DNA of 32,000 nt from Trichlorobacter lovleyi SZ. Its GTDB lineage: Bacteria > Desulfobacterota > Desulfuromonadia > Geobacterales > Pseudopelobacteraceae. Below, one piece after another: positions 8,472-32,000 of this stretch (positions within the stretch are counted from its first letter, which is position 1; the number at the start of each line of letters is the position of its first letter). Below the pieces are notes generated by a model. The model was given only the letters and a program-made list of their open reading frames with translations. It made no database searches and was not told the DNA's origin. The position numbers and the translations under genes were made by a program. The DNA lies in NCBI RefSeq assembly GCF_000020385.1, contig NC_010814.1, positions 2,490,001 to 2,522,000 of the forward strand, in the 5' to 3' direction.

Positions 8472-8478
8472 TGGCTAC

Positions 8479-11092: not shown

Positions 11093-11104
11093 AGTATGAC
11101 GTTT

Positions 11105-11281: not shown

Positions 11282-11299
11282 AGGGTGAGCAATCCTTCT

Positions 11300-11854: not shown

Positions 11855-11866
11855 GACAACCTCTTG

Positions 11867-12943
11867 TCAGTTTATCACTGCATGCCGTTGCTCAACGTAC
11901 CCCATAATACCTGCAGCAATACAGACCGTCAGTATAATTGGACCCGAGCTACTGAAAAATGGTAGCGGTATCGGCCAGAAAAACAAGCCAACATTATAGA
12001 GCACATGTAACATGGCAAGCCCAATTACCGCCCCTCCCCAGATAACCAACAGGTAGGTCATGGCCTCCAGGCCTGCCTTGCGTACAGTGCGAACCACCAT
12101 GAATGCCAATAGCGCAAAGCTTAGTATGACCAGGGCCATGCCAACCAACCCGTACCAGGAACCGATCACCGCAAAAGTGTACTCACCATTATTTCCCTGA
12201 CAGAGCAGTTGTTCAAAAGCCGGGGCCGTATCTATGCAGACCTGTGCCGCGCTTTCCTGAGTGGGCATGGATGGGGTGCTACCAATCATACCGCCGGTCT
12301 GCATGGACTGCAGTGCCAGGACGTGAGGAGAGCCCGGTTCACTATGGGTCAGTATCCGCTGCACATGATGCAGTCGATATGGTCGGGCAACAATTGCTGT
12401 TCCCAGAAAGACAACCGTACCAATCAGCAGAAACAGCCCGGCCAAGGGGCGACGGTACAGGCACAACAATACGCTAGCCAACAAGATGCCGACAAGGGCA
12501 AGCCCCAGATTGCCATGGCTGACAACCAGCCCAACTATCAAAAGCCCACCTAGTACCAGCATAACCTTGGCAGTCCAGCCGCATTGGCCGGCATTGCTGC
12601 AGAGTATACAGCCGCTTAAAAACAGAAGGCAGGCAAACAAATCACTGCCTGTGGCCACGGCATAGAGCTCTATGCTCGGAAACAGGCTTGGCAACATGGC
12701 TAAAGTAAATGCGGCAGAAACGAGAATCCAACGTATATTTGGCTGGGCTTGCAAGCGACTATACTTTATCGCACCCCCGACAAGTGCGACTGCAATCAGG
12801 GCAACAGCGTACACCAGTGGCGGTGCATTCTCCGGCAGGTCTGATGCATAGGCAAACGCCCTGCAGACAAACACAAACCCGGTCAATAGCATCAGTACAC
12901 TTAATCCAACATACCAGCCCGCCTGAGTTTTAAGATAGTTCAT
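11867..12943 (-). CDS. divergent SEDS-family (FtsW/RodA/SpoVE-like) polytopic membrane protein
   Basis: The C-terminal half aligns by eye to RodA. YTFAVIGSWYGLVGMALVIL matches DFIFAVLAEELGLVG, and IPLPFFSSSGPIILTVCIAAG matches VPLPLVSYGGSALIVLMAGFG. About 10 hydrophobic segments over 358 aa. SD is AGGGAGGG. Confidence 0.7.
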   Translation of the reverse strand: MNYLKTQAGWYVGLSVLMLLTGFVFVCRAFAYASDLPENAPPLVYAVALIAVALVGGAIKYSRLQAQPNIRWILVSAAFTLAMLPSLFPSIELYAVATGSDLFACLLFLSGCILCSNAGQCGWTAKVMLVLGGLLIVGLVVSHGNLGLALVGILLASVLLCLYRRPLAGLFLLIGTVVFLGTAIVARPYRLHHVQRILTHSEPGSPHVLALQSMQTGGMIGSTPSMPTQESAAQVCIDTAPAFEQLLCQGNNGEYTFAVIGSWYGLVGMALVILSFALLAFMVVRTVRKAGLEAMTYLLVIWGGAVIGLAMLHVLYNVGLFFWPIPLPFFSSSGPIILTVCIAAGIMGYVEQRHAVIN

Positions 12944-14776: not shown

Positions 14777-14784
14777 TATAAAAA

Positions 14785-14815
14785 AACCTCCTCAGGTGGT
14801 GTACCTGAGGAGGTT
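14785..14815 (-). terminator. rho-independent terminator ending module B; its 3' arm contains the SD of the PcfJ-like gene
   Basis: Perfect 13-bp stem AACCTCCTCAGGT/ACCTGAGGAGGTT with a 5-nt loop. On the minus strand it is followed by T7, then ATA, then the ATG at 14776. Confidence 0.8.
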
Positions 14816-14916
14816 AGACGGACAAAAGCAGGTTGGTCAGCAACAGATTTCAAAGTTTGCCCCCTGATTTGTAAAACATTCACAATTTTCTGTAAGCTGA
14901 GCCTTCTTGTATTCTG

Positions 14917-17442
14917 TTACTTCACCACAATCCGGTCAGCGGTTACGCTGCCCGTCCCAATGGTTAATACACCCTGCAGCGTAGTCACACCGCTGGTTGT
15001 CCTGCTGAAGTCAGCTTTATACCCTCCCTGCAGGTTCAGCTTCTTATTAATTACTGTACTTAGCGATAACGTATCTTCCAGCAGGTAAACCAATGTTGTA
15101 TCTGTTGTTGATGCTGCTGCATAGGCATCTGCAAGGCTACCATAACCATTACTGCCTATCTTGGCCTTGGGTGCCAGAGTAAAGGTGGCAGTAACTCCTT
15201 TTGCGCTATCCATAGCCACAGTACACGCATCCAACCCTAAACAGGCCCCACCCCACCCGCCAAAGGTGGACAGGGAGTCGGACATCTGCAAAAGGGTGAC
15301 GTTTTGTCCATAGGGGAAGGTGGTGGTACAGGTTCCACTGGTACAGGTAATACCCACTGGTTTTGTACCCAGCGGGTCGCTGGTGACGGTTCCCCCGCCG
15401 GTCCCAGCTACGGATACCGAAAGTACGGGTGGTAAAGGCAAACCGTTGATCAACACATCATCAATCCTCCAGCTGCCCATGGTTCCATAATAGTGAAAGC
15501 GTACCATCACATTGCTTTTACCTGCCGCAACTGACGTCATATTCAAGCTTATGCTCTCAGTGAAGCTCCCTTGCGTTTTCTTCAAAATATTTACCCATGG
15601 ACCTGCAGGGCCATTCTCGCTGATATCAACATCCGCGGTTGATGCATTTAACACGGACTTAAACGCCAAGTTAACAGAACCATAGTTACGAAGATCAAGA
15701 GCAGGTGTTCTGAGTTCAATATCAATAAAGGCATCTGGTTGGTCTCCATAGTTACTACCCCGTGCAAATCCGCCAGTACCACCTGTGTAGTTGGTTCCCA
15801 AAGAAGTACCAAACCACCACGTACCAGCAGGGTCAGAAATCCTTGTCCAACCTGTTGGTACACTGCTTGATTCAAATGCCTCGCTTAATGCGACAACAGA
15901 GGTAAATGTTGCCGTTATCGAAGTGTCTGACAGCATAGTAACGGTACAGGGACCAGTTCCAGTACACCCGCCTCCTGACCAACCGGTAAAGGTAGAGCCA
16001 TTATCAGCTGTGGCAGTCAACGTTACTACGTCTCCTGTTGCGTAACCATTTGTGCCTGTGGTGCCATTCCAGGCAAAAAGACCGCCATCTGAGGCGGTTA
16101 CAGTGCCTGTTCCTGCTCCAGTTTTAGAAACCGACAGGCTAAAATCCTTAGGATCGTTTGGCACAATACCGGTGATGATAGACTGGTTGCTCCCGCTCCA
16201 GAAATAGCTGCCAGTAGTAAAGCCGTTATATACGTCATAATAGGCATCATACCACCCGTCCCATCCAAGATTCAGATGCACCTTACTGGTAATGCCGTCG
16301 GTTTGATACCCATCAGCAACAAAGGCATGAGCACCGATGGTCGAGTTAACTGAACTAAACATCACCGGTCTTCCTGGTACTGCATCAAATTCATTCTTAA
16401 ACAGATCAAACCAGGTGGAGGACGTATAATCGTTCCTAATGTGCTTGGCTTGAGTGGGTTTATAATTAAAATACGTTGGAAGAGTATAAGGAGTAACGCC
16501 AGCACCAGAATCAGAACAGCCATAGTCCATATAAACCGCTATCCCAACATCTGACATAAGTTTGGCCACTGCATTGATTTGTGTGCTTGTACTGAAAGAA
16601 GAGAGGGCCGATGGCATATTGTTCCAGTCATACACACTTTGAGAAAAATCAGCCGATAATGTAGTGCCATTCCACGCATATGAGTTACTGCCAACTCCTT
16701 TGTCTGGCCAGCGCCAATAGCGGAGTATCTGGGACCAGGCAGTAGCCACACAGCCAGTCAAGGTATGGGCGCAGGTTCCAACGTCACCAGTACCTGCTGG
16801 GGTCAGATAATTATAATAGGGAGACTGCCCCCATGTGGTTGTGAGTAAAGGGGCTACTTGGGCAGTCGCATATACTATACTGGATGCTGCCTTGGAGGTT
16901 GTAGCTTCAGGGGTTGCAGGCTCAGCAGCGTAGAATTGCCATGACACGCCAACCGGAGTTTTTTCAGAAGCAATACTTTTGTTTGCGCCTACCTGTTCCT
17001 TTAGTTTTTGAATGCTTTTATGGGTGGAAAACATCTCAGGAAGGATCCATGATTCTACAGAATCAGGCTGCGTTACCCGTGATGGTTCAAAGCTGGACCT
17101 GTAAGAGAAAAGCACTACCGGCGTAAATTCATCATGATACGGAATAAGGAGGTAACCACTTGGTTTGACCGAGACATTATAGGCTATCGGTTCACCTTCA
17201 TGCTCTACAAGCTGAATCTTTGTGACGACCGGTTTTGGATCATTGGCCCACAGCCCAAATCTCTCAACTTGATGACGAAGAAAGTTTTGTGCCACTCGCC
17301 TCACCACCACTTCTGCAACAGGTGCAGCAATAACGTTGAGCGGGCAGACGAGTATCCCCAAAATCAGTACTAATGATATGCCATAAATTGTCTTTGTGGA
17401 CATGCTTTCCCCTGTCATGGCAAACATGTTGTGCTTAGTCAT
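14917..17442 (-). CDS. secreted C10-family (streptopain-like) cysteine peptidase with prodomain, B-repeat-like domains, a MAM/choice-of-anchor-J-like domain and a shared C-terminal tail
   Basis: Catalytic Cys context TGCVATAWSQILRYWRWP and His context GAHAFVADGY, with an upstream WGQSPYYNYLTP. The signal peptide starts more plausibly at Met14 (ATG at 17403). GWSGGGC/GGWGGAC repeat modules are present. Confidence 0.88.
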   Translation of the reverse strand: MTKHNMFAMTGESMSTKTIYGISLVLILGILVCPLNVIAAPVAEVVVRRVAQNFLRHQVERFGLWANDPKPVVTKIQLVEHEGEPIAYNVSVKPSGYLLIPYHDEFTPVVLFSYRSSFEPSRVTQPDSVESWILPEMFSTHKSIQKLKEQVGANKSIASEKTPVGVSWQFYAAEPATPEATTSKAASSIVYATAQVAPLLTTTWGQSPYYNYLTPAGTGDVGTCAHTLTGCVATAWSQILRYWRWPDKGVGSNSYAWNGTTLSADFSQSVYDWNNMPSALSSFSTSTQINAVAKLMSDVGIAVYMDYGCSDSGAGVTPYTLPTYFNYKPTQAKHIRNDYTSSTWFDLFKNEFDAVPGRPVMFSSVNSTIGAHAFVADGYQTDGITSKVHLNLGWDGWYDAYYDVYNGFTTGSYFWSGSNQSIITGIVPNDPKDFSLSVSKTGAGTGTVTASDGGLFAWNGTTGTNGYATGDVVTLTATADNGSTFTGWSGGGCTGTGPCTVTMLSDTSITATFTSVVALSEAFESSSVPTGWTRISDPAGTWWFGTSLGTNYTGGTGGFARGSNYGDQPDAFIDIELRTPALDLRNYGSVNLAFKSVLNASTADVDISENGPAGPWVNILKKTQGSFTESISLNMTSVAAGKSNVMVRFHYYGTMGSWRIDDVLINGLPLPPVLSVSVAGTGGGTVTSDPLGTKPVGITCTSGTCTTTFPYGQNVTLLQMSDSLSTFGGWGGACLGLDACTVAMDSAKGVTATFTLAPKAKIGSNGYGSLADAYAAASTTDTTLVYLLEDTLSLSTVINKKLNLQGGYKADFSRTTSGVTTLQGVLTIGTGSVTADRIVVK

Positions 17443-17486
17443 ATATTCTGCCTCAAATATGAAGAATGGCTAATACTTTCATTTTA

Positions 17487-20400
17487 CTACTTCACTACAA
17501 TCCTATCTGCGGTCAGGCTTCCAGTCCCCACTGTCAGTATCCCTTGTAATACAGTGTAACCGTTTGTGCTTCTGGTGTAGTCGGCCATATACCCTCCTTG
17601 CAGTGTAAGCGGTTTATTGATGGTGCTATAAAGCGTCAAACTATCCTCCAGCAACATGACAACAGCATTATTACCTGCTGCTGCATAGGCGTCTGCAAAG
17701 TTAGCATAACCGGTATTGCCTATTTTCGCCTTGGGTGCGAGGTTGAAGGTAGCAGTCACCGTCTTATCAGCGGTCATGCTTAAAGCACAGGTCCCTGACA
17801 GATTTGTGCAGGCGCCACCCCAACCACCAAATGTGACAATACTGCTGGAACTGGCGGTAAGGGTGACGTTTGTTGCGTCATCAAACAATGCAGTGCAGGT
17901 AGCATTGGAGCAACTAATGCCAGCCGGTACACTGCTGACTGTCCCGATGCCATAAATGGTGGTGGTCAATGTTGGTATGGTAACAGCGGTAGTTGCCTGT
18001 ACCGGTGCAGAGACATTACCGGCAGCGTCTTTAGCCCAGACATTCAACACCTTAAACCCATTTGAACTGACCGCATACCCGGTAGGTTTGGTTGCCAGCC
18101 AACCGGCATCTCCTGCTGCTGGTGGCGTGCTTGTTTCTGTCACCATCCAACCAGTAATAGCAACGTTGTCGCTAGCGGTAAGAGTGGTAAACGGTATGGT
18201 CTTGGTCTTGACGGTTGCCGGTATCACAAAGGCACTGATAACTGGTGCTCCACTATCCACTCCAGTAACGGTAACCGGTACGGCTACCGATGGTGTATCA
18301 GGGTCATTGGATGCAACGGTCACGGTGGCAGTCTTGGTTACCAACGCTGTTGGGGTAATACTTACCCCAACCGTGCAGGAAAGACCTGCCTGAATGGTTG
18401 GAGTCATGCTGGCACAGGCATTGTCACCCGATGGAGCAACAGTAAAGGCGGCTGCGTCAGTACCAGACTTGGTGATGCCGGTTACATTAAGTGGTGCAGT
18501 ACCGGCATTGCGAATGGTCAGCAGAGCGGTTGATGTCTGTCCAATGTTGGCAGTGCCGCTCAGAGGGTTGGGGGTAACACTGATGTCCTGCAGGTTACCG
18601 CCCAGCACTACAGTGTAACTGTTGTTCAGTTCGTCACTTTCAGCAATGCTATTGGCTTCATCGACTGTCGCCACTACGGTGTAATACGGTTGTACTATGG
18701 CAGAGGCATCCCAGGTGTAGGTAAGATCAACACTGGCAAAGCGTGCCAGGGTTGGAACCGTCAGGTTGGTAATAACCGGACCGGTACTGCTGCCGTTATG
18801 CAGCGTCACGGTTGAGGCAGCACTGGCAGTACCGCCGATGTTTGCCACGGTAACAATCATGCTGTATTTGGTGGCAGCCAGTTTTTCCCAGGTAATGTTT
18901 CTGATGGAAAGATCCGGCTGGGCCAGAGAACTGCTGATCACGTTATTGGCCCGGTTCAAGGTGTCAATGGTGGCGTTGGGGTCGATCACAGCATAGACCG
19001 TATAGGGTGCTGCACCTGCCGGGATGGTCCAGGAAACAGATACGGTCTGCACTTCACCCGGTTTGAATGGCCCTGTTATGGTAGCCGTACCGATACTGTT
19101 GCCACCATTGGCAGGGTCTCCATTGTAGAAGGTAACCGGGATATTCTGGGCAACCTTGTCACCCAGGTTCTGGGCCACAGCGCTCAAGGTGACAGCAGTG
19201 CCAGGGGCCGGGTTACGTGGGTCAGAGATCAGGCTGCCAGCCTCAAGGGCCAGGTCATCCCCCATGGTGTGCTTTAACATATAGAGGTCAGTCAAGGCAC
19301 CGGTTGTCGGGGTGCCGTCTGGATTGATCAGCAGTTTGCGGTTGTAGACCGAGATAATGGTGTCAGTTCCCAGGAAGGCAATTGAGGGCCATTGTTCGGT
19401 CTCAGCATCAAAGGTTAACTGCTTGGGTTCACCCCAGACCTTGAAGACCGGATCATAGAACAGGCCAAACAGGTCCGAGGTGCTGTCTTCACTGTTGTCT
19501 GCATAGATCACCGCTACCTTGCCGTCTGTGGCCTGGGCCTGTTTGTAGTCTGCCAAGGTGCTGGAGTAGTTGTCTTCAGCACGGATGACCGTACGATTGG
19601 CAAAGTCAAAGTTAACCACACTGGAAAGCTCATTCCCCCGTACCCAGGTCATGACGACATTGTTGTTGCTGTCCAGGGCCAACTGGGGGTTGTCGTCTAT
19701 TACGCTGTCGGTTGTCAGGCGGGTCAGGCTGCCCCATGTTCCGCCGTTGTTGGTCAGGCGATACAGTTCAAGGTCTTCCAGGGTGCTGCTGTTGGCATCA
19801 GTGTCGAGGGAAAGCACAATATTGGCGGTTGTACCATCATACACGGCGCTGTAGCGCTTGATGGCGTTGGGGATGCTGGCCAGCAGTTGCGGCGTACTCC
19901 AGGCAGTGCCGTTAAAGGTGGCTGCGTACAGGCTGTTGGGTTTGGTTGCGCTACCCACAAGATCATTCTGGCTGTTGGCAATCCAGGTCAGCAGCAGGTT
20001 GTTTTTGTCCTTACCGGCAAGTTTCGGTGTACGCTCAAGGCTGCCGTTGTTGGTCAGGCGAACAGCAGTGCCCCAGGTTTTGGTGGTGGGATTGTAGACC
20101 GCAGCTGCTATCTCCATCAGCGGAACCACGTCCTCAAGCAGGGCTGTGTCCGGCAGGGTGGTTTTCATATCTTCCCAGGCAGTAACCATACTGCCATCGC
20201 TAAAGGTTAAGGAGCTCGGATTAAAGTCAGCGGTGCCGTTGTCAGCCACAGCCACCGGCGTACTCCAGGTGGAACCGTCAAAGCTTGAGTGCTGCAGCAT
20301 GGTACGGTTCATGAGAGTCCGAGCTGTGTTATCTTTTAACCAGAGCAGGTTGACGTTACTGCCGTTGGATGAAAGCGAGGCCGATGAAACCGGGAAGGTG

Positions 20401-23400
20401 GCAGACATGATCGGAGCAGAAGCGACACTGTAGCTCTGGGTCTCGGTGGCCACCTGTTTAACCGTATAGCTGGGAGATGACTTAAAGTCAGCAGGAACTG
20501 CGGCCTTCAGGTAGGTGCGGGGAATCTGCTCCAATAGTCCAGGAGTTGCTATTGTGTCTTCTCCGAGGCTACAACTGCCATATAGGCACCATGTACCCTT
20601 GCCAATCACATAGTTATATTTAAAATTGAACAGATAAGCTGTCGCTGTCAAATCGGCACTAAACTTAAGTTGATTGTCATTTGTAGGTAGTGTTAAGCCA
20701 AGATTTAACGTTCCTGTCAGCGTACCTTCCACACCGACGTTACCATCTACACCGACACCAAGAGTTCCAGATACGGCTGGATTAAGGTTAAGGCTTCCTT
20801 CAAAATCTTCTTGGGCAAGCCCCATTCCAAGAGCATTAAAACCGACATCTCCAGTGAAGTGAAATTTCCCCTTCAGGTAATAGGGGACAGGTATAGGCAC
20901 AACTGCAGGAATTACAAACATGCTTTGTTTCGTTTTTTCAATGGAGTAGTCCAAGGCAAAGCCAACGTCACCTTTAACATCCCATCCAGAGTCTGCTGTA
21001 GAGCAAGATTCAGGATTAAACTCGGTCTTTATATCAATAAAGGGGTAAAAAGAAGCACTTTGTGAACCAAAACCGATTTTCGGCATGCCTTTACCTTGAT
21101 ACTTTTTTACATAATCATCAAAGTTTCTCTTGAATTTTTTGAAATCACGATTTTTGGCATACTCTTTATCAAACAGGTTCCCTTGGGTTTGATCAATCCA
21201 GGCGACCCTATATTTACCTCCATCCGTGCTACTATATTCAAAGGCAACACTTGGCAGCAGCTTCAGTAAAAATGAATCGCCAAACAATATTGGTACAGCG
21301 TAGTTGGCAATACTCACATTAAGATTGGCAAGTGAAAGCTGTTTGTCGTTTTCGCCATAACTGTATTTGTTTGTATAAGAAAAAACGCTACCTTCATCAA
21401 CAAATTGCAGCATTGGTGGATCTGCGTTTGGGTTAAATCTTTTGGCCACCATGAAATCAGCATTTACTATCGGCGAGCTATTACCAGCAAAATCAACCGC
21501 TGCTACAGATAGTGTTGTACACGGGTCAAACTCTGTAGTTATATTGAATGTTTTACTAACTGGTGCGAATGAACCAAAGGTGTATTCATTGTAGGTTCCA
21601 CGCGGCGTTATAAATTTTATGTAGTTTGGAGTTTTTCCATCCCAATCCACATCAACAGTAAAGGTCACATCAACTGTTTGGTTGCCGATATATTCTTTAG
21701 GTAGAAAATAATACGGCTTACCGCTGGAATACTTTGAGGTAACCGAGGTCACCCGGAAACCAGTGGTGGCGGGAGTAAGGCTAATATCTTTCTGGGCAGA
21801 CTGCAGCGGCGCCAGTGTTACGTTAGCCCTGGCAGTCTCATAACCGCTTTTGGCGGCAACAAGGCTTAAACTGCCGCTGGTAAGGTTTTCCGCAAGGTAG
21901 TGTCCACCTGTATCGGTTGTATAGGGGCCACTGCCGCCAACCGTAATGCTTGCGCCGCTTACTGGCAGCTTGGTGGTTGCGTCTCGGACCACACCCCCCA
22001 CTGTTGCCGTGCCCACACCGCAGGAACTACCGGAAAGCGCAGCGGTCAGGGTGCCCTGATCGGTAACAACATTCAAGGTAGCGCTTTGGGTACCACAACT
22101 ATGGGGGGTAAAGTTGACCGAAATGTTGCAGCTTGATTTTGAGGCAAGAGTACTACCGGAGCAGCCGTCTCCTAGACTAAAATCCAAGGCATTAGGACCG
22201 GTAATGCTGGCGCCAGTGATGCTGGCAGCGGTGGCGAGGGTATTGCTGACGGTTAAGGTCTTTGATGTGGTGACCTCAATATATTGATTGGCAAAAACTT
22301 CTTTGCTTGGGAAAAGCACTACAGAACCCAGTTTTTTTACGCTACCGCCTCGAACAGGCCAAACTCCATTTTTATAAACTTTGTAATACGAATACACAAA
22401 AGATTCGTACCAAAAATTCATACTACTTGCAGAACCTCTAATTTCATCATCTAGCTGACTTACAAACTGAAATAAAGTTGGACTGCTCGATGACCAATAA
22501 AGATAATAACTCAAATCAAGATTAACGAAAGGGTGCGCATTGGGTAAAGAAGGAGCTTTTTGCTGTAAATCAATAATTGACTTTAGTTCGTTGCGATTAG
22601 GCAAACGCCAGTCGTTAAACCCAAGATAGTTTTGACTATTTATTTTTTTGATATAATCTAGGGCATCCTGCCATGATAATCGCTCTGACGAGGGACTGGC
22701 ATTTTTGGTCCAGACTAGATCTGTCAAACCATCAGTGATTGTATTGTTTCCATTATCAATAAAACGTGGATTAGGCCAAGCTTTACCTGCTTGGATTTCT
22801 CCATCTTGCCCCGTCCCCTGACAATTCACTTCATTTGCAACATCATCATAACATTTGGTCTGTCCCGTTTTATAAAGACTTATTGCAGACTTTTCAATAA
22901 TTGTACTATTACGAACTGGCCACGCATAAACATAATTGCTTTTGCCTGTAGAAGACATGTGTTCACTATAAACACTACCATAATAAGCATAATAACCGGA
23001 TCCTGATGATGACACATCTGTTGTTGATGTCCAAAAATAACGAGAATTAAAGTTTGTAAAAGGAATTGATATTGGTGATGCAGAATAACTATACTGAATG
23101 TTTATTAGGCTATCCAACTCAAGCACATTAGGAAGTCGCCAATCATTAAAGCCAAGATAGTTTTGACTATTAAGATACTTAACATAATTGAGAGCACCTA
23201 GCCAGGTTTGCCATACACCGGCAGGACTGGCATTTTTACTCCATTCTAGACCTGTAAGGTTGTCCGTTACCGTGCCATTACCATTATCAGTGAAACGTGG
23301 ATCTGGCCAGGCTTTACCTGCCTGTATTTCGCCATCCTGACCAGTGCCGGCGCAGGCCATTTCAGCGCCAGCAGTGTCATAGCATTTGGTCTGTCCGGTA

Positions 23401-23495
23401 GCCGGCAACTGGATAGTTGCAGCATAAGTAGATACACTGCATAAAATGCCACATATAAAAGTCACTAGAAACTTGGCAAACAATGATCTATTCAT
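17487..23495 (-). CDS. 2002-aa secreted multidomain surface protein
   Basis: The order is a signal peptide, then two DUF1566/Lcl-like repeats (GFNDWRLPN). Next come a choice-of-anchor-D-like domain, a carboxypeptidase-regulatory-like domain and ~400 aa I could not assign. Then follow degenerate Asp-box propeller-like repeats (SFDGSTW, NNGGTWGS), CARDB-like domains, a second choice-of-anchor-D-like domain, a B-repeat and the shared tail. Confidence 0.88.
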   Translation of the reverse strand: MNRSLFAKFLVTFICGILCSVSTYAATIQLPATGQTKCYDTAGAEMACAGTGQDGEIQAGKAWPDPRFTDNGNGTVTDNLTGLEWSKNASPAGVWQTWLGALNYVKYLNSQNYLGFNDWRLPNVLELDSLINIQYSYSASPISIPFTNFNSRYFWTSTTDVSSSGSGYYAYYGSVYSEHMSSTGKSNYVYAWPVRNSTIIEKSAISLYKTGQTKCYDDVANEVNCQGTGQDGEIQAGKAWPNPRFIDNGNNTITDGLTDLVWTKNASPSSERLSWQDALDYIKKINSQNYLGFNDWRLPNRNELKSIIDLQQKAPSLPNAHPFVNLDLSYYLYWSSSSPTLFQFVSQLDDEIRGSASSMNFWYESFVYSYYKVYKNGVWPVRGGSVKKLGSVVLFPSKEVFANQYIEVTTSKTLTVSNTLATAASITGASITGPNALDFSLGDGCSGSTLASKSSCNISVNFTPHSCGTQSATLNVVTDQGTLTAALSGSSCGVGTATVGGVVRDATTKLPVSGASITVGGSGPYTTDTGGHYLAENLTSGSLSLVAAKSGYETARANVTLAPLQSAQKDISLTPATTGFRVTSVTSKYSSGKPYYFLPKEYIGNQTVDVTFTVDVDWDGKTPNYIKFITPRGTYNEYTFGSFAPVSKTFNITTEFDPCTTLSVAAVDFAGNSSPIVNADFMVAKRFNPNADPPMLQFVDEGSVFSYTNKYSYGENDKQLSLANLNVSIANYAVPILFGDSFLLKLLPSVAFEYSSTDGGKYRVAWIDQTQGNLFDKEYAKNRDFKKFKRNFDDYVKKYQGKGMPKIGFGSQSASFYPFIDIKTEFNPESCSTADSGWDVKGDVGFALDYSIEKTKQSMFVIPAVVPIPVPYYLKGKFHFTGDVGFNALGMGLAQEDFEGSLNLNPAVSGTLGVGVDGNVGVEGTLTGTLNLGLTLPTNDNQLKFSADLTATAYLFNFKYNYVIGKGTWCLYGSCSLGEDTIATPGLLEQIPRTYLKAAVPADFKSSPSYTVKQVATETQSYSVASAPIMSATFPVSSASLSSNGSNVNLLWLKDNTARTLMNRTMLQHSSFDGSTWSTPVAVADNGTADFNPSSLTFSDGSMVTAWEDMKTTLPDTALLEDVVPLMEIAAAVYNPTTKTWGTAVRLTNNGSLERTPKLAGKDKNNLLLTWIANSQNDLVGSATKPNSLYAATFNGTAWSTPQLLASIPNAIKRYSAVYDGTTANIVLSLDTDANSSTLEDLELYRLTNNGGTWGSLTRLTTDSVIDDNPQLALDSNNNVVMTWVRGNELSSVVNFDFANRTVIRAEDNYSSTLADYKQAQATDGKVAVIYADNSEDSTSDLFGLFYDPVFKVWGEPKQLTFDAETEQWPSIAFLGTDTIISVYNRKLLINPDGTPTTGALTDLYMLKHTMGDDLALEAGSLISDPRNPAPGTAVTLSAVAQNLGDKVAQNIPVTFYNGDPANGGNSIGTATITGPFKPGEVQTVSVSWTIPAGAAPYTVYAVIDPNATIDTLNRANNVISSSLAQPDLSIRNITWEKLAATKYSMIVTVANIGGTASAASTVTLHNGSSTGPVITNLTVPTLARFASVDLTYTWDASAIVQPYYTVVATVDEANSIAESDELNNSYTVVLGGNLQDISVTPNPLSGTANIGQTSTALLTIRNAGTAPLNVTGITKSGTDAAAFTVAPSGDNACASMTPTIQAGLSCTVGVSITPTALVTKTATVTVASNDPDTPSVAVPVTVTGVDSGAPVISAFVIPATVKTKTIPFTTLTASDNVAITGWMVTETSTPPAAGDAGWLATKPTGYAVSSNGFKVLNVWAKDAAGNVSAPVQATTAVTIPTLTTTIYGIGTVSSVPAGISCSNATCTALFDDATNVTLTASSSSIVTFGGWGGACTNLSGTCALSMTADKTVTATFNLAPKAKIGNTGYANFADAYAAAGNNAVVMLLEDSLTLYSTINKPLTLQGGYMADYTRSTNGYTVLQGILTVGTGSLTADRIVVK

Positions 23496-23578
23496 CCCGG
23501 CCCCATTTTCATATGTGCTATTTTTTTAAATACAAAAACACCTGAAACAACAAAATGTCATTCTTCCCGCGCCTATAT

Positions 23579-26116
23579 TCAGTTGGTCTGCAAAAGACTT
23601 GGGAGAATGATCACTCGGTCAACTACCACGCTTCCCATGCCGATGTTCAAAACGCCACCCAATCCGGTAAAACCGCTACTGCTTCTGCTAAAGTCAGCCT
23701 TGTAGCCGCCTTGAAGGATTAATGCCTTGTCAACAACCGTACTGAAAGGCAAAATATCCTCCAACAGCATGATTATGTCATTGCTGTTGGCTGCTGCATA
23801 GGCGTCTGCAAAACTACCGTAGCCATTGCTACCTATTTTTGCCTTGGGTGCCAGGCTAAAAGTGGCGCTGACAGTTTTTGCACTATCCATAGTTAAGCTG
23901 CATACGCCTGTTCCTGAACAGGCGTTGCCCCACCCAACAAAAGTTGACAAAGCATTAGGTGCTTGTAAAAGGGAGACGCTTTGTCCGTAAGGAAATGAGG
24001 TTGTACAGATTCCACTTGTGCAGGTAATGCCAGTTGGATCTGTTCCCTGTGGATTGCTGGTAACCGTTCCTCCTCCGTTCCCTGTCACAGACACCGAAAG
24101 TACTGGTGGAGAAGGCATGCCGTTGATCAAAACATCATCAATCTGCCAATAGCCATGGACGCCATAATAGTGAAAGCGCACCATTATATTGTTTTTGCCT
24201 GCCGCAAGTGTCGTCAAGATAACGTTGACATTTTCTGGCCCTGAATATTTATCTTTCCTAACTATATTGATCCAAGGGCCAGAAGAACCATTTAAACTGA
24301 TGTCGACATCTGCTGTTGCTGTTGCTAAAGATTTAAATGAGAGATTGATTGTACTATAGTTGCTGAGATCAAGAACAGGCGTTCTGAGTTCAATATCAAT
24401 GTACGCATCAGGTTGCGTAGAAAAGTACCCTCCCCATGCAAATCCACCGGTGCCACCCACATAATTAGTGGCCCAGGACATGGTGCCAAACCACCAGGCG
24501 CCAGCTGGGTCGTAATCAACTGTCCAGCCGCTTGGCACACTGTTTGTGTCGAAAGTTTCAGACAACACAACGCTTGTAGAAAACGTTGCTGTCACTGATA
24601 CATCAGACGACATTGCAACGGTACAGCTTCCTGTCCCGTTACAGCCTCCACCTGACCAGCCAGTAAAGATAGAACCATTATCTGGTGTTGCAGTTAACGT
24701 TACCACTGCGCCACTAGAATAACCGTTTGTACCAGTGTCACCGCTCCAAACAAAGATACCGGGTCCTGAGACTGCTACGGCACCTGTCCCTGGACCATCC
24801 TTTGAGACGGTTAAGGTAAAATCTTTGGGGTCATTGGGTTCAATACCGGTAATTATGGCATGGCTGCTTCCAATCCAGGAGTAAGCACCTGTGGTAAAAT
24901 CGTTATATACGTCGTAATAGGCATCAGCGTAACCGCCCCATCCAAGATTCACATGTACCTTACTGGTGATGCCATCTGTTTGGTATCCATCAGCAACAAA
25001 GGCGTGCCCTCCGTTTGAGCTTTGGGCAACAAACATCACAGGTCTTGCCAGGGTTGCATCAATTTCCGTCTTAAACAGGTCAAACCATGTTGAAGCAGTA
25101 TAGTCATTTCTACTGTGCCAAACTTGAGTTAACTTGTATTTAAAGTAGTTCTGAAGGGTTGAAGGAGAAACCCCACCATACGATGTTCCACAGCCATAGT
25201 TCATATTAACCGCTATCCCAACGTCTGACATCAGTTTGGCCACGGCGTTAACTTGTGTGCTCGAGCTGGAAGACGAGAGAGCCGACGGCATATTTCCCCA
25301 ATCGTACACACTTTGTGAAAAATCAGCCGACAGGGTAGTGCCATTCCAGGCGTAGGAGTTGCTGCCAACTCCTTTATCTGGCCACTGCCAGTAACGAAGT
25401 ATCTGAGACCAGGCGGTAGCCACACAGCCTGTCACTGTGTGGTCACAGGTTCCAACTGCACCAGTACCGGCAGGGGTCAGGTTATTGTAGTAGGGGGCTT
25501 GATTCCAGGTAGTTGTAAGCAGGGGAGCTACTTGGGAGGTTGTGTATTCTACGTTTGATCGCGTATCAGAAGATGAAACCGTAGAAGCGACAGTATCATC
25601 ACCATAGAATTTCCAGGATTTACTGACTTGAGTGGTCTCACTCACCAGGTTTTTGTCCGATTTTATTTGTTCTTGGAACTTTTGTCTGTTTTTGTGAGTC
25701 GTGTTCATTTCCGGGAGGATCCAGGACTCAACAGAATCTGGCTGTGTTACTCGAGAAGGCTCAAAACTTGATCTATAAGAGAAAAGAACGACCGGAGTGA
25801 ATTCATCATGATAAGGGATGAGAAGATAGCCACTGGGCTTAACAGAGACATTATAGGCAATGGGTTCGCCTTCGTACTCAACCAATTGTATCTTGGAGAC
25901 AGTCGGCTTGAAGTCATGCACCCAAGGGCCAAATTGCTTAACCTGATGCCGAAGAAAACTCTGTGCAACACGCCGTACCATCACTTCTGAAACAGGCGCT
26001 GCAAAAACCGTTGAGACAGAGAACAAAAACAGGAAAACAGCTACTATTCCTGTGCTATGCAGCAACTTTTTTTTATGTTGCTTCCATCCTACGGTTGAGT
26101 AAAGTCTCTGTACCAT
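23579..26116 (-). CDS. secreted C10-family cysteine peptidase, paralog of 14917-17442
   Basis: TGCVATAWSQILRYWQWP and GGHAFVADGY. Same domain order as the 841-aa protein. GGAGA SD lies 9 nt upstream. Confidence 0.88.
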   Translation of the reverse strand: MVQRLYSTVGWKQHKKKLLHSTGIVAVFLFLFSVSTVFAAPVSEVMVRRVAQSFLRHQVKQFGPWVHDFKPTVSKIQLVEYEGEPIAYNVSVKPSGYLLIPYHDEFTPVVLFSYRSSFEPSRVTQPDSVESWILPEMNTTHKNRQKFQEQIKSDKNLVSETTQVSKSWKFYGDDTVASTVSSSDTRSNVEYTTSQVAPLLTTTWNQAPYYNNLTPAGTGAVGTCDHTVTGCVATAWSQILRYWQWPDKGVGSNSYAWNGTTLSADFSQSVYDWGNMPSALSSSSSSTQVNAVAKLMSDVGIAVNMNYGCGTSYGGVSPSTLQNYFKYKLTQVWHSRNDYTASTWFDLFKTEIDATLARPVMFVAQSSNGGHAFVADGYQTDGITSKVHVNLGWGGYADAYYDVYNDFTTGAYSWIGSSHAIITGIEPNDPKDFTLTVSKDGPGTGAVAVSGPGIFVWSGDTGTNGYSSGAVVTLTATPDNGSIFTGWSGGGCNGTGSCTVAMSSDVSVTATFSTSVVLSETFDTNSVPSGWTVDYDPAGAWWFGTMSWATNYVGGTGGFAWGGYFSTQPDAYIDIELRTPVLDLSNYSTINLSFKSLATATADVDISLNGSSGPWINIVRKDKYSGPENVNVILTTLAAGKNNIMVRFHYYGVHGYWQIDDVLINGMPSPPVLSVSVTGNGGGTVTSNPQGTDPTGITCTSGICTTSFPYGQSVSLLQAPNALSTFVGWGNACSGTGVCSLTMDSAKTVSATFSLAPKAKIGSNGYGSFADAYAAANSNDIIMLLEDILPFSTVVDKALILQGGYKADFSRSSSGFTGLGGVLNIGMGSVVVDRVIILPSLLQTN

Positions 26117-26145
26117 CTAGGTGTCTCCGTTATATCAGGTTAAGC

Positions 26146-26838
26146 TCAAAGCATCCCCTTTAGTAGTGTCCCCAACGCCCCATACCACTCTTCCGTATCC
26201 TTAGCTTCTGACAGATGCTTCACCAGTGGTTCCAGCTTATCAGCTAAAGCTGCATCCCCAAGGCTGCGGGCTTCCTGCTGTAGGGAGGCTGGCAGGTTTT
26301 TATCAATCTTGTCGTACTGCTTTGCCTCAACCGACTTGATGGTCTCTTCTGACCATATTTTAAGCCGCTGATGCAGTCTGGCAGTTTCTGAACTAGCGGT
26401 GTTTATGCCGCCAATGGTGTTGTGACCTGCTGTTTGTACCTGGCCAACTCTTTTACCCGGATGTTGCTGCACAACCAGCCCAATGGCCAGTAGAGCCACA
26501 GCGGCAACAGCAAGGCCACCGTAGAGAAAGCCTCTGCCAGGAGACGCCTTTACTGCCTGTGGCGCTTCTTTGAGTAGAGATGCCGCCATGGTGTAACGGG
26601 CCAGGCATGAGTCGCAGGCAGCAATATGGGCAAGGCAACGTTCCCGCTCACCACTTGGCAGACGGTTATCCAGCAGGCTTGCCAACTGTTCGTCACTCAG
26701 GCAGGCTGGTACAGTTTGCTGCTGTTGGATTGCAGCGGCAATACTGCGCCCGATCTGCTGATCGCGGTTGTCCTTTTCAGAAGCCTGGTTCATGGCCGTA
26801 TTCCGTTCATCATAGTTAGACGGACAGTTCTCTTTCAT
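26146..26838 (-). CDS. anti-sigma factor (zf-HC2 type), single-pass membrane protein
   Basis: H-x3-C-x2-C motif (HIAACDSC), one TM helix (LYGGLAVAAVALLAIGLVV), and an ATGA start/stop overlap with the upstream sigma gene. Confidence 0.75.
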   Translation of the reverse strand: MKENCPSNYDERNTAMNQASEKDNRDQQIGRSIAAAIQQQQTVPACLSDEQLASLLDNRLPSGERERCLAHIAACDSCLARYTMAASLLKEAPQAVKASPGRGFLYGGLAVAAVALLAIGLVVQQHPGKRVGQVQTAGHNTIGGINTASSETARLHQRLKIWSEETIKSVEAKQYDKIDKNLPASLQQEARSLGDAALADKLEPLVKHLSEAKDTEEWYGALGTLLKGML

Positions 26839-27722
26839 AATAATGCATCCAGCGAAACTCCTTGTTTCAGCAACAATTCACGGCAGGTTGTCAGAACACG
26901 CCGGGTACGGCGCTCCACCTCCTGCTGGTTCAGCCCCAGCATTTTTGCCACCGTGATAGCATCCAGTGGATCAGTAGCATCATCCAGCGGAAAGCGCAGC
27001 CTGACCAGTAGCTTGTCCTCAGCGGTCATACTGTCAAGTACCTGCTTGAGGACCTCTTTGCGTTTTTTGTCCTGCTGTTTGTCTGCCAGCTTCTGTTCAG
27101 GAGTATCACGCTGAATGCTGACCAGTTCACCGCTATCGTTCCAGGCGGTTTCGTGGTCGGTATCGGACGGGTAACGACTGTTGCGCCCCTGCATCTCGCC
27201 AAGTATTGCCTGCAACTGCCCGGCATCGGCAATCATGCCATAGTTGATCTGCAGGATCTCAACTGTCTCACTAATGGTATGCCTGGCTTGTACAACTAGT
27301 TCGTAGGTACGGCGGCCCAGCTCGCCAAATCGCTCTGCCCGCTCTTTGGCACGGTTGCGTCCAGTGCGGCTGCGGACGATGTCCACCACTAGACGGCTGA
27401 TAATGGCGGTCAGGTAGGTGGTAATGGAGGACGTACCCTTGAACTCCCGTAGACGACGGTAGTCATCTTCCTGTAGATGATCCAGCACCTGCACGAACAG
27501 TTCATCCTTGTCCAGTCTGCCTGCCCGTTCAACCAGATAGCCGTGGCCACCTTCACCGGCAATGCAGTGGCTGTAGGCAGCTTCAGCCTGTCCAGCAGCC
27601 TTTTCGCAGACCTTGGCAATATAGTCCAACTGTTCGGTCAGTAGCCGCTTACAGGTGGGAGCATCATATCCTCCGGCAGGTGGTGCAGTAGATATTCTCT
27701 TTTGCCTTAACAACTTAAACAC
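26835..27722 (-). CDS. sigma-70 family (ECF-like) RNA polymerase sigma factor with an N-terminal extension and a long region 2-4 linker
   Basis: Region-2-like FKGTSSITTYLTAIISRLVVDIVRSR and region-4 HTH ITVAKMLGLNQQEVERRTRRVLTTCRELL. At 295 aa it is longer than a minimal ECF sigma. Confidence 0.8.
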   Translation of the reverse strand: MFKLLRQKRISTAPPAGGYDAPTCKRLLTEQLDYIAKVCEKAAGQAEAAYSHCIAGEGGHGYLVERAGRLDKDELFVQVLDHLQEDDYRRLREFKGTSSITTYLTAIISRLVVDIVRSRTGRNRAKERAERFGELGRRTYELVVQARHTISETVEILQINYGMIADAGQLQAILGEMQGRNSRYPSDTDHETAWNDSGELVSIQRDTPEQKLADKQQDKKRKEVLKQVLDSMTAEDKLLVRLRFPLDDATDPLDAITVAKMLGLNQQEVERRTRRVLTTCRELLLKQGVSLDALL

Positions 27723-27901
27723 CCATAGCCACCCAATAGCCTATAATTCAGTGAGAATATCTCGCAAGTTTAGAGCAGCACTTCTTAGCTTCATTATTTC
27801 AGCCAGGGAAGGCTATTATATGGTGACAACAAGGTGCGTGTACGCATCGAATAATACGGCTATAAATATCAATAAACATATAACTGCATTGTTGATAAAT
27901 C

Positions 27902-30178: not shown

Positions 30179-30239
30179 ATTCCTCTCCGTGAAAACATTT
30201 TACTAACTCAGGGACGCAACTCACACCTCAAGAAAAGAT

Positions 30240-30417
30240 CGCTCCACTTCGGTACAGTTACGGCAACGCACTGGCTGTAGGCACTATCAGCCTAACCTGC
30301 AGCTTTTACAAAGACCGTGGTGATATAGTCCAACTGCTCGGTCAATAGCCGTTTGCAGGTAGCGCTATCATAGCCTCCGGTGGGTGGCATTGCTGAAATT
30401 TCTTGTCGTTTAAATGG
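30240..30417 (-). pseudogene. decayed 5' fragment of a second sigma-factor gene, paralogous to 26835-27722
   Basis: About 165 nt align at roughly three-quarters identity to 27558-27722. The translation is PFKRQEISAMPPTGGYDSATCKRLLTEQLDYITTVFVKAAG*ADSAYSQCVA, against FKLLRQKRISTAPPAGGYDAPTCKRLLTEQLDYIAKVCEKAAGQAEAAYSHCIA. An in-frame TAG lies at 30292-30294, and homology is lost after ~57 codons. Confidence 0.75.
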
Positions 30418-30418
30418 C

Positions 30419-31204: not shown

Positions 31205-31303
31205 GGCTCTGATCTCCTCGTGTTTATTGGTGTTTTGGCGAACTCAATATATCACAAGTAGCTCTCAGAGCCTCCTCTTATTCAATCAATTTATGGGACA
31301 GCA

Positions 31304-31772: not shown

Positions 31773-31913
31773 TCTTTCGCAGGTTGGGCTAATTTTAGTT
31801 GTTTTCAGATGCTACTAAATGGACAAACTCCACAGGGGAGTTAAGGCAAAATATATTGATTTTGTTAAGATAAATTTTACATCAACAGATTACATCCTTT
31901 TCATTAGACGTCA

Positions 31914-31936: not shown

Positions 31937-31944
31937 AACAAATC

Positions 31945-31973: not shown

Positions 31974-32000
31974 TTGCTTATCCATGTGGCCAGCCAAGGG

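Follow-up and report, generated by a model that had tools for sequence, protein, structure and literature searches.

A conserved sigma/anti-sigma cassette heads exchanged cargo in Trichlorobacter lovleyi SZ, where two C10 peptidases and a 2002-residue exported protein share an uncatalogued C-terminal domain

Analysis of 32,000 nucleotides of the Trichlorobacter lovleyi SZ chromosome (the window, in whose coordinates all positions are given) revealed that a sigma/anti-sigma gene pair is a conserved cassette with exchanged cargo, and that the cargo in this strain comprises two C10 peptidases, C10-A and C10-B, and a 2002-aa multidomain protein, all three of which end in a B-repeat followed by the same C-terminal domain (CTD) of ~87 aa. 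We propose that a portable cassette heads a cargo operon that varies between strains, and that the CTD would direct the operon's three Sec-exported, horizontally shuffled products to one shared site, extracellular or at the cell surface. There they might act jointly as an adhesive, proteolytic surface assembly. Both C10 paralogues would contribute a pro-region at the N terminus and a cleaved-adhesin/MAM-like module for binding, while the 2002-aa protein would be built of lectin-like (Lcl_C) and Ig-like domains; an envelope signal would be sensed by the anti-sigma factor, sigma would be released, and transcription of the unit would rise in dependence on it. As a whole, this reading of a signal-switched, shuffled cargo operon that sends three proteins to one extracellular destination stands, in our judgment, in even balance between right and wrong.

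All genes of the locus lie on the minus strand in the order sigma (26835..27722), anti-sigma (26146..26838), C10-A (23579..26116), the 2002-aa protein (17487..23495), C10-B (14917..17442) and an intrinsic terminator (14785..14815); the gene order and coordinates given by the sequence-only reading match the sequence. Gaps on the cargo side are 29, 83 and 44 nt, and a terminator scan inside the cluster returned only short stems of 5-6 pairs with stability at shuffle level. The strong terminator reported after the second C10 gene was recovered as a 13-bp stem with a 5-nt loop and a T7 run, folding at -23 kcal/mol (z = -6.0), a stability equaled by none of 200 shuffles. Because the genes share one strand, are separated by these gaps and are closed by a single strong terminator, they appear to form an operon and are likely co-transcribed. 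A 758-aa lipoprotein-like protein, with an LLVCSGC lipobox and a weak TPR/YfiO-like stretch, is encoded upstream in the same orientation, 179 nt from the sigma gene (27902..30178, minus strand); no such gene precedes the cassette in two related loci, L010 and L011, and membership of the SZ gene in the operon unit is uncertain.

The first gene encodes a divergent sigma-70-family sigma factor of 295 aa, named "sigma-70 family RNA polymerase sigma factor" in RefSeq, which scores 44.1 bits against NCBIfam TIGR02937 (cutoff, 42.9); against Pfam, Sigma70_r4 reached only 16.5 bits, below its cutoff, and Sigma70_r2 was not detected. Region 2 spans approximately aa 75-135 and region 4 approximately aa 228-283, and a profile of the family (n = 62; lengths of ~293-303 aa) found PDB matches in region 4 of SigB/SigF/RpoD (E 1e-4) and in region 2 of SigW (E 0.004). 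The second ORF, of 230 aa, encodes a zf-HC2-like, single-pass protein with the motif H71-x3-C75-x2-C78 and a single hydrophobic stretch (aa 104-123), scoring 21.4 bits against Pfam zf-HC2, just under the cutoff of 22.2. The succession of a sigma gene and an anti-sigma gene is thus upheld by the TIGR02937 match and by a zinc-finger motif with a score just below threshold. H-x3-C-x2-C followed by a hydrophobic segment is found in 341-343-aa proteins adjoining sigma homologues in L015 and L016 and is also readable in L007, L010, L011 and L012. The proposed ATGA coupling of the two genes fared less well: the overlap is present in the sequence, but it depends on a 15-codon extension that, in the alignment with L010 and L011, is interrupted by a frameshift in one of these related strains and a stop codon in the other, so the true anti-sigma start is probably Met16 at nt 26793, giving a protein of 215 aa that begins ~41 nt past the sigma stop.

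The conserved cassette, i.e., the span common to other Trichlorobacter-like strains (26167..27689, minus strand), aligned by blastn over ~1,500 nt with L010 (73% identical) and L011 (83%). Homology ends ~10 codons inside each boundary, no homology to either locus was found upstream or downstream of the cassette, and the downstream cargo differs among SZ, L010 and L011, as it does more broadly across related strains and species. When loci with sigma homologues were compared, the sigma gene headed a same-strand cluster in all eight, and the same-strand downstream genes included peptidases in six, their classes being C10, C14 caspase-like (four loci), trypsin/M48 and M41. Signal peptides or lipoboxes are present in many of the encoded products, and the cargo usually consists of exported peptidases, mostly caspase-like. 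The cargo of L010 looks cytoplasmic (FtsH-like, FHA, PP2C and kinase genes), which speaks against the whole reading.

The suggestion that these genes are carried as island cargo is supported by an IS fragment and a pseudogene fragment of a sigma gene, by a resolvase and a PcfJ-like gene, and by low G+C content, 42-47% across 21-25 kb, the average of the SZ chromosome being 54.8% (PMC3403914). The pseudogene fragment, the 5' end of a second sigma paralogue with in-frame stops (30261..30415, minus strand), shares 82% nucleotide identity with the 5' end of the sigma gene in L011 and abuts a truncated IS4-like transposase gene (30419-31204; DUF4372 and partial DDE_Tnp_1). Such debris close by, together with homology that ends at the cassette boundaries, would suit an alternative in which regulator and cargo became neighbors by chance through island mosaicism, with the sigma pair controlling other genes and the peptidases relying on their own or read-through promoters. 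The promoter search also favors that alternative: for the dedicated envelope-signal control put forward earlier, it yielded no ECF-type promoter ahead of the sigma gene or C10-A, and the only candidate was a sigma-70-type pattern match, TACACG-N16-TATAAT (27815..27842, minus strand), which precedes the sigma start codon by ~90 nt. The equivalent site in L010/L011 reads TTGCCT or TTGTCC, then N17, then TATACT, and the regions upstream of their sigma genes are likewise sigma-70-like rather than ECF-like; that no promoter for this sigma was identified weighs against our reading as well. Since only 29 nt precede C10-A, read-through from a housekeeping promoter could suffice for the cargo. Against mosaicism, however, stand the position of the sigma gene at the head of every compared cluster, the recurrence of peptidase cargo, and an anti-sigma-to-cargo gap so short here, and zero in L011, where the start codon of the cargo directly follows the anti-sigma stop, that there is no space for an independent cargo promoter. 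We therefore consider an accidental adjacency unlikely, and control of the cargo by sigma is plausible from the comparative linkage across the sigma-homologue loci.

C10-A (845 aa) and C10-B (841 aa) match PF01640 at 194 and 193 bits, respectively, are 69% identical and share one architecture. Their catalytic residues, Cys231 and His371 in C10-A and Cys231 and His372 in C10-B, are in place, and C10-A aligned with interpain A (3.8e-32) and streptopain (1.8e-25) through TGCVATA and GGHAFV. With this Pfam check, the C10 assignment proposed earlier, with an intact catalytic dyad, is solid. C10-A consists of a signal peptide, a pro-region of ~165 aa, the C10 domain (aa 204-401), an InlB B-repeat, a cleaved-adhesin/MAM-like domain (aa ~515-670), a second B-repeat and the CTD; the B-repeat modules described previously have Pfam matches, and a Flg_new_2 match was also obtained. 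The "MAM/choice-of-anchor-J-like" label is supported indirectly: two homologues exceed the Cleaved_Adhesin cutoff of 21.4 bits, but the domain itself reached 15.5 bits and had no NCBIfam match. C10-A is 100% identical to RefSeq protein P0001 and C10-B to P0002, both already named "C10 family peptidase [Trichlorobacter lovleyi]"; because P0002 begins at Met14, C10-B probably starts there (nt 17403). The surprise expressed at finding C10 peptidases outside Streptococcus and Bacteroidetes is weakened by this annotation and by at least 2,355 homologues at E ≤ 1e-5 among 8,000 candidates scored, the few organism-named ones among the matches listed including Desulfobacterota. The two proteases are ordinary family members, already annotated and not new, and homologues abound in metagenomes as well as in Desulfobacterota.

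For the large protein encoded between them, the earlier description as adhesin-like is supported: by its Pfam and NCBIfam matches it is an exported, adhesin-like, multidomain protein. Its N-terminal part carries a signal peptide, two Lcl_C (DUF1566) domains, an Ig-like (Cep192_D4/ASH) domain and CarboxypepD_reg, and its C-terminal part two CARDB domains, choice-of-anchor D/ASH, an Ig-like domain, the B-repeat and the CTD. The family search gave no family for aa ~580-1420, a single-sequence AF2 model of aa 580-1010 had a pLDDT of 34, and PDB 2kut matches aa 1427-1522.

The "novel tail" noted earlier proved to be a real, uncatalogued domain of 87 aa, with no match in Pfam or NCBIfam and a wide distribution: an exhaustive HMMER search found it in at least 5,723 representative proteins (clusters) at E ≤ 1e-3 and in 2,567 at E ≤ 1e-10. 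It lies at 23582..23860 in C10-A, 17490..17750 in the 2002-aa protein and 14920..15183 in C10-B (all minus strand, by alignment). The latter two copies end in TADRIVVK-COOH, whereas that of C10-A is atypical, with eight additional residues (LPSLLQTN) in place of the usual terminal Lys; few near-terminal copies extend by eight or more residues, and this extension counts against the whole reading, as does the fact that no partner machinery for the CTD was identified. N-terminal hydrophobic segments occur in 54 of 80 CTD proteins, but in only 6 of 80 when an internal window served as control. The N-terminal partners are modules typical of extracellular proteins, the most frequent being the B-repeat (37/80), followed by PKD, Big_5, Lcl_C, cohesin, fn3 and C1/C10 peptidases; separately, S8 subtilase heads were observed in three CTD proteins. 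Loci L013 and L014, from two other organisms, each contain four to five consecutive genes that all end in the CTD, encoding C10, C10, M6, C39-like and large B-repeat proteins, with four per cluster annotated as peptidases. A secretin/pseudopilin cluster adjoins one CTD gene cluster and is the only lead to partner machinery.

These gene runs bear on the relationship suggested earlier, i.e., that the two C10 peptidases serve to process or shed the adhesin-like product of the intervening gene, or to activate it. Two peptidase genes do flank the large gene in one apparent operon, and streptopain and gingipains process surface proteins of their own cell. In L013 and L014, however, peptidases of several catalytic classes occur together with large noncatalytic proteins present or absent, so that the recurring theme is a co-tagged protease set rather than a protease-substrate pair; moreover, the 69% identity of the two C10 paralogues suggests duplication and divergence of specificity, not a bracketing design. 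We judge processing or shedding quite improbable. Because all three SZ proteins and the L013/L014 runs carry the CTD, the evidence points to shared targeting instead.

Whether the CTD may be an address tag, with a sorting or anchoring role, has to be weighed against its being an ordinary terminal binding or structural module spread by domain shuffling, for example, a short beta-solenoid that binds glycan or the cell's own exopolysaccharide or that caps B-repeat stalks. Internal or tandem copies occur in 44 of 167 sampled CTD proteins (e.g., P0129 and P0123), which such a module would fit as well as a sorting signal would, and a B-repeat nearly always precedes the domain. The AF2 model of the copy from the 2002-aa protein (pLDDT 92.4) shows a helix and a short beta-solenoid, and the pattern Y-x-S-L-Q-x-A-Y-x-A-A ... 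I ... L-x-G-G-Y resembles that of right-handed parallel beta-helices in their N-terminal cap and first rungs. The top weak Foldseek neighbors of the model are the N-terminal rungs of carbohydrate-active enzymes, namely pectate lyase Pel9A, PL6 alginate lyases and pectin methylesterase (query-normalized TM, 0.36-0.54); every such match, however, is nonsignificant (E ≥ 2; probability ≤ 0.3), and unlike beta-helix proteins, the CTD is C-terminal, ends after ~87 aa and starts no long helix. Also against the module stand the extreme C-terminal bias (a copy ends within five residues of the C terminus in 156 of 167 proteins), the conserved end motif V-E-N-L-[IV]-I-[KRQ]-COOH, the 101 of 158 near-terminal copies that stop exactly at the profile end, and whole runs of adjoining genes that carry the domain. 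An ordinary module is possible but doubtful, and the role of an address tag is preferred.

The cargo of sister cassettes raises another explanation, that the operon is the effector module of a biological-conflict or defense island, its exported peptidases being weapons or self-destruct effectors that would be deployed when phage, a predator or a competitor attacks and would be equivalent to the caspase-WD40 cargo of sister cassettes. The latter do encode C14 caspase-like proteins bearing WD40 or Lcl_C domains, or trypsin/FGE-sulfatase/C14 sets, their neighborhoods are rich in toxin-antitoxin (HEPN/NTase, PIN and CcdAB) and PcfJ-like genes, and an IetA-like AAA protein is encoded at 5644-7047. 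By contrast, a PADLOC scan limited to the flanking genes and regulators was blank for sigma, anti-sigma, the upstream lipoprotein and the tested flanks except the distant AAA protein, and the main conflict-systems paper makes no mention of sigma, Geobacter, C10, streptopain or PcfJ. Secreted, adhesin-rich cargo would equally suit nutrient acquisition or surface remodeling, and a defense role appears decidedly improbable to us.

Compared to known systems, the regulators resemble ECF/ZAS pairs such as SigR/RsrA and SigW/RsiW in that a sigma gene is followed by one for an H-x3-C-x2-C anti-sigma factor with one membrane segment, and in the weak region-2 similarity to SigW and a TIGR02937 score that barely passes. 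Typical ECF sigmas are ~170-200 aa, whereas this factor has 295 aa, of which ~90 aa link regions 2 and 4; its region 4 is closer to group 1-3 sigmas, no ECF-type autoregulated promoter was seen, and the organism-named members of its family are Geobacteraceae, except for one Acidobacteriota MAG, with variable peptidase cargo. The peptidases share with streptopain (SpeB) and interpain A (InpA), MEROPS C10, a homologous catalytic domain (E 1e-25 to 1e-32) with aligned Cys and His and a conserved GW(G/D)G segment, Sec export, and an N-terminal region of ~165 aa at the place of the zymogen pro-domain, which the Pfam model Inhibitor_I69 did not match. Unlike SpeB and InpA, they have ~440 more C-terminal residues (B-repeat, cleaved-adhesin/MAM-like, B-repeat and CTD), form two paralogues in one operon behind a sigma/anti-sigma pair, and belong to a metal- and organohalide-respiring species of Desulfobacterota that is not host associated. 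As with the T9SS CTD, the terminal domain is common to many exported proteins and to neighboring genes, and the T9SS domains, too, close with a hydrophobic strand and then Lys or Gln. Comparison with Por_Secre_tail gave no sequence match at E ≤ 5, and Foldseek with the CTD model returned no T9SS CTD; the predicted fold is not the 7-strand Ig-like sandwich, some proteins carry internal or tandem copies, and to our knowledge T9SS is not known in Desulfobacterota. By analogy, the closest functional parallel, with an unrelated tail here, would be the protease/adhesin/CTD arrangement of the Porphyromonas gingipains, in which a cysteine protease head is likewise followed by cleaved-adhesin-type domain(s) and an extreme C-terminal domain of 80-90 aa.

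On the minus strand of the window, five closely packed ORFs were found between 14.8 and 27.7 kb, with the gene order and coordinates proposed by the sequence-only reading: a sigma factor gene (26835-27722; 295 aa), an anti-sigma gene (26146-26838; 230 aa as an ORF), the C10 (streptopain-family) peptidase gene C10-A (23579-26116; 845 aa), a gene encoding a large multidomain protein (17487-23495; 2002 aa), and a second C10 peptidase gene, C10-B (14917-17442; 841 aa). The spacers 3' of the anti-sigma gene measure, in order, 29, 83, and 44 nt, and because the first gap is only 29 nt, there is no room for a separate C10-A promoter. The sole strong terminator for the cluster lies at its end (14785-14815; 13-bp stem, -23 kcal/mol, z = -6.0), and a terminator scan within the cluster returned short-stem matches at the level of shuffled sequence and nothing more. 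The window is matched at 100% identity by four contigs (L001-L004) from metagenomes or enrichments.

By profile comparison, the product of the first gene is a highly divergent sigma factor. It just passes TIGR02937 (44.1 bits, cutoff 42.9); its Pfam region 4 score of 16.5 bits is below 24.1, and Pfam region 2 was not found. A profile built from its family matched SigB/SigF/RpoD in region 4 (E 1e-4) and SigW in region 2 (E 0.004). The 62 relatives are all ~290-313 aa long, and those with an organism name are from Geobacteraceae, save one Acidobacteriota metagenome-assembled genome (MAG). ECF-type sigma factors are compact, about 170-200 aa, and lack a linker of region 3 length, whereas the window protein is 295 aa long with ~90 aa between regions 2 and 4. 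Its partner has the features of ECF/ZAS pairs, namely an adjoining anti-sigma with an H-x3-C-x2-C motif (H71-x3-C75-x2-C78) and one hydrophobic, membrane segment (aa 104-123), with a zf-HC2 score of 21.4 bits, 0.8 under the cutoff; zinc-finger motif and membrane segment accompany the sigma homologues in seven of eight family loci. The two genes were said to be coupled by an ATGA overlap. The overlap is present, but it depends on a 15-codon extension that carries a frameshift in the homologous locus L010 and a stop in L011, unlike the downstream anti-sigma ATG (MNQA...), which is conserved.

A search for an ECF-type promoter upstream of the sigma gene had been suggested. Inspection by eye of this region in the window, L010, and L011 revealed no AAC-rich -35 with a CGT-type -10, only sigma-70-like hexamers (TACACG-N16-TATAAT in the window; TTG(C/T)C(T/C)-N17-TATACT in L010 and L011), which is weak negative evidence, as the motif of a divergent sigma factor may differ. 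An ECF-like GGAAC...TCAGA in the 3' end of the anti-sigma gene was dismissed as conserved coding sequence, indistinguishable from codon conservation. We infer that transcription of the operon may depend on this sigma factor.

Nucleotide homology of the sigma/anti-sigma pair, here called the cassette, to the two Trichlorobacter-like contigs (L010, 73%; L011, 83%) is confined to 27689-26167; it sets in near codon 11 of the sigma gene and ends roughly ten codons short of the anti-sigma stop. The cargo downstream of the cassette in the window consists of the two C10 peptidases and the 2002-aa protein. In L011 it is a lipoprotein WD40-caspase (C14), and in L010 an FtsH-like AAA-M41 protein with FHA, PP2C, and kinase genes; in more distant family loci it comprises trypsin-PDZ, M48, trypsin, FGE-sulfatase, and C14 (L005), WD40-C14 (L007), C14-Lcl_C proteins (L015), WD40 and CHASE2 (L012), or CHASE2, PLD, and TPR (L016). 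Peptidase cargo is present in six of eight sigma-family loci, much of it with export signals. None of the other sigma-family loci carries the ~87-aa C-terminal domain (CTD) that ends all three cargo proteins of the window; because of this, the cassette and the CTD-tagged cargo are independent modules joined in strain SZ. An accidental adjacency of regulator and cargo is a rival reading, against which the recurrence of peptidase cargo beside the cassette speaks; we consider it unlikely. With its interchangeable peptidase cargo, the cassette is a natural case in which the shuffling of regulators and effectors as modules can readily be studied.

Several features place the operon in an island context. 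G+C content is 42-47% across 21-25 kb of the window; the chromosome average of strain SZ is 54.8% (PMC3403914). A 155-nt remnant of a second sigma paralogue lies on the minus strand at 30261-30415; it is a pseudogene fragment interrupted by in-frame stops, shares 82% identity with the 5'-terminal part of the sigma gene in L011, and suggests that more than one such cassette once stood at this site. A truncated transposase gene of IS4-like type (30419-31204, minus strand; DUF4372 and a partial DDE_Tnp_1) directly joins this fragment with its 3' end. None of the four junction regions examined contains direct or inverted repeats within itself, a plasmid megablast with 10000-32000 gave zero matches, and an Rfam scan of 14000-32000 found no family. 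Following the operon terminator is a gene for a PcfJ-like protein (12980-14776, minus strand). In each of the three Trichlorobacter-like loci, such a gene, encoding 598-615 aa, is no more than a few kb away from the cassette despite the difference in cargo (3143-4990 in L010; 1643-3490 in L011); similarity at the DNA level is limited to one stretch, ~170 nt at 71% identity to L011. Just past it, three membrane-protein genes occupy 10034-12943 on the minus strand; one product (358 aa) resembles FtsW/RodA at a borderline Pfam score, another (184 aa) is a putative zincin peptidase of DUF3267, and a polytopic one (352 aa) has no family. Also on the minus strand are an overlapping or abutting trio at 5644-9870, encoding TPR proteins of 463 and 475 aa and a TPR-AAA+ ATPase of 467 aa, and, at 3219-5585, genes for a serine recombinase (resolvase), a metallophosphatase, and an HD-domain protein. 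A metallophosphatase is found at the edge of the sigma-family locus L012 as well.

These neighbors raise the question of whether the operon is an effector module of a conflict system. The AAA+ ATPase at 5644-7047 matches the PADLOC IetA models (E 1e-29); apart from this IetA-like match, a PADLOC scan covering the sigma factor, the anti-sigma, and a set of flanking genes assigned no defence family. A paper on conflict systems (PMC7159879) uses neither 'sigma' nor 'Geobacter' as a word. We regard a conflict-system role as improbable. Separately, the clusters led by the sigma/anti-sigma homologues in other Geobacteraceae (L005, L007, L011, and L015) are rich in caspase-like C14 peptidases fused to WD40 or Lcl_C, as well as in genes for trypsin, M48, and FGE-sulfatase.

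Assignment of the two peptidases to family C10 was borne out. Both cover profile positions 1-194 of 194 in PF01640, scoring 194.3 (C10-A) and 192.9 bits (C10-B) against a cutoff of 26, and align with interpain A (E 3.8e-32) and streptopain (E 1.8e-25). Cys231 (TGCVATA) and His371/372 (G[GA]HAFVADGY) are in register with their equivalents in the solved structures of interpain A (3bba) and streptopain (4d8b). Based on these alignments, C10-A and C10-B are members of the streptopain family with predicted cysteine endopeptidase activity. They are 69% identical to each other across 825 residues and share the order signal peptide, ~165 aa, catalytic domain, InlB-type B-repeat, 160-aa domain, second B-repeat, and CTD, so that the B-repeat modules described earlier do occur, on either side of the 160-aa domain. 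The ~165 aa between signal peptide and catalytic domain stand at the position of the C10 zymogen pro-domain; no match to the pro-domain model Inhibitor_I69 was found at E <= 5, and alignment to the interpain zymogen starts only at aa 154. The 160-aa domain had been likened to MAM/choice-of-anchor J. Its own Cleaved_Adhesin score (15.5 bits) is under threshold and NCBIfam gave no choice-of-anchor J match, but its homologues P0179 and P0255 exceed the Cleaved_Adhesin cutoff, which backs the likeness indirectly.

The occurrence of C10 peptidases in this lineage had also been presented as a taxonomic surprise, which is true of characterised enzymes only. At E <= 1e-5, at least 2,355 homologues were found among 8,000 candidates scored, and the few named by organism include Desulfogranum, Desulfobacteraceae, Desulfosarcinaceae, and Dissulfurispiraceae. 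A search of genome contigs with C10-B gave a lone match, a Bacteroidia C10 at 32% identity, and our literature search found nothing tying C10 peptidases to Geobacter. C10-A matches at 100% identity the RefSeq entry titled "C10 family peptidase [Trichlorobacter lovleyi]", and C10-B from Met14 on is 100% identical to the RefSeq protein P0002. With the RefSeq label already in place, the C10 enzymes are routine additions to a known family.

The 2002-aa protein located between them contains, from its N terminus, a signal peptide, two Lcl_C (DUF1566) domains that arose by internal duplication (repeat families D6 and D7), an Ig-like Cep192_D4/ASH domain, CarboxypepD_reg, and a region without a family at aa ~580-1420, of which aa 580-1010 gave a pLDDT of 34 in a single-sequence AlphaFold2 (AF2) model. 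After aa ~1420 come two CARDB domains, choice-of-anchor D, an Ig-like region, a B-repeat, and the CTD; adhesin-like exported protein is a fair label. Its gene is a G+C mosaic, with 53-55% at 18-20 kb (the C-terminal half) and 42-44% at 21-23 kb (the N-terminal half), and the homologue P0256 (79% identity) spans only aa 1048-2002. The mosaic and the partial homologue suggest that the large gene was put together by recombination. Two peptidases bracketing this protein led to the earlier proposal that they process or shed it. Such processing is conceivable; that the peptidases and the 2002-aa protein share their last domain points instead to shared targeting, and we hold a protease-substrate relationship to be quite unlikely.

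That domain was described as a "novel tail" and is indeed real: the same ~87 aa close all three cargo proteins, and searches of Pfam (E <= 5) and NCBIfam (E <= 1) found no family, Por_Secre_tail included. An exhaustive search with a profile of ten CTD copies recovered 5,723 representative proteins at E <= 1e-3, of which 2,567 remained at E <= 1e-10; a word-indexed search yielded 22 short hits, and the cluster look-up led to a Syntrophobacteraceae MAG. A copy lies <= 5 residues from the C terminus in 156 of 167 CTD proteins examined, 44 of which have extra copies as well. The terminal motif is V-E-N-L-[IV]-I-[KRQ]-COOH, and 101 of 158 copies finish exactly at the profile end. At the C terminus of C10-A (23582-23605, minus strand), the CTD ends in ...DRVIILPSLLQTN, compared to the family norm of ...[IV][IV][KRQ]-COOH; it runs eight residues beyond the last strand, an extension seen in very few copies, and may be a decaying or differently handled copy. 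AlphaFold modeling from a 64-sequence alignment produced one helix and short solenoid-like strands (pLDDT 92.4). Foldseek with this model against the PDB returned nothing significant and no type IX CTD at E <= 10; the weak best neighbors were the first rungs of right-handed beta-helix enzymes.

We then considered the company that the CTD keeps. Its N-terminal partners are modules typical of extracellular proteins, above all B-repeats (37/80), followed by PKD, Big_5, Lcl_C, cohesin, fn3, MAM, and C1 or C10 peptidases. S8 subtilase heads occur in another three CTD proteins, and our literature search found nothing connecting B-repeats to a new CTD. An N-terminal hydrophobic segment is present in 54 of 80 CTD proteins, compared to 6 of 80 in an internal control stretch. 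Runs of four to five consecutive CTD genes occur on two unrelated contigs, with C10, C10, M6, and a CarboxypepD_reg protein in L013, and C10, a 948-aa B-repeat protein, C39-like, and M6 in L014. Directly upstream of the four-gene run in L014 (10001-21493) are genes for PilN, a secretin, and two pseudopilins (2897-8805), candidate export machinery for the CTD proteins. That the CTD is a plain binding module is somewhat unlikely; the extra copies would fit such a module, while the strong bias for the C terminus and the tagging of consecutive genes speak against it. We infer that the CTD may have a sorting role.

For the locus as a whole, our confidence is evenly balanced on a reading in which a horizontally shuffled operon led by the sigma/anti-sigma cassette would encode three exported proteins, the shared CTD would send them to one destination, and there they would act jointly as an adhesive proteolytic surface assembly. 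More tentatively, and with doubt prevailing, the CTD might be the address tag of an undescribed route by which Desulfobacterota and their uncultured relatives sort proteins, secrete them, or attach them to the surface. Its users would be whole peptidase clusters (C10, M6, and C39-like), single peptidases of classes S8 and C1, and large proteins resembling adhesins. Separately, the Geobacteraceae cassette would be a portable switch coupled by recombination to alternative exported-peptidase arsenals. If the CTD is a sorting or anchoring signal, it would point to a hitherto unknown way of exporting or attaching proteins in anaerobes of environmental importance and offer a handle for predicting their surface proteomes. 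The CTD, which is compact, folds confidently, is present in thousands of protein clusters, and tags whole protease gene clusters, and the cargo-swapping cassette are the parts worth pursuing; T. lovleyi SZ is a cultured isolate in which both ideas are experimentally testable in principle.

In the reading of a jointly acting surface assembly, the operon would work similarly to the gingipain/cleaved-adhesin/CTD arrangement of Bacteroidota. Like the type IX secretion CTD, the CTD occupies the extreme C terminus of many Sec-exported multidomain proteins (156/167 terminal; 54/80 with the N-terminal hydrophobic segment), a resemblance in function only. The two domains differ in that the CTD has no sequence match to Por_Secre_tail and its AF2 model is missing the Ig-like beta-sandwich; as it agrees with a type IX CTD in neither sequence nor fold, the operon is not a member of that system. 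If the address-tag reading holds, the modeled CTD would serve the same function as the type IX CTD with a different fold.
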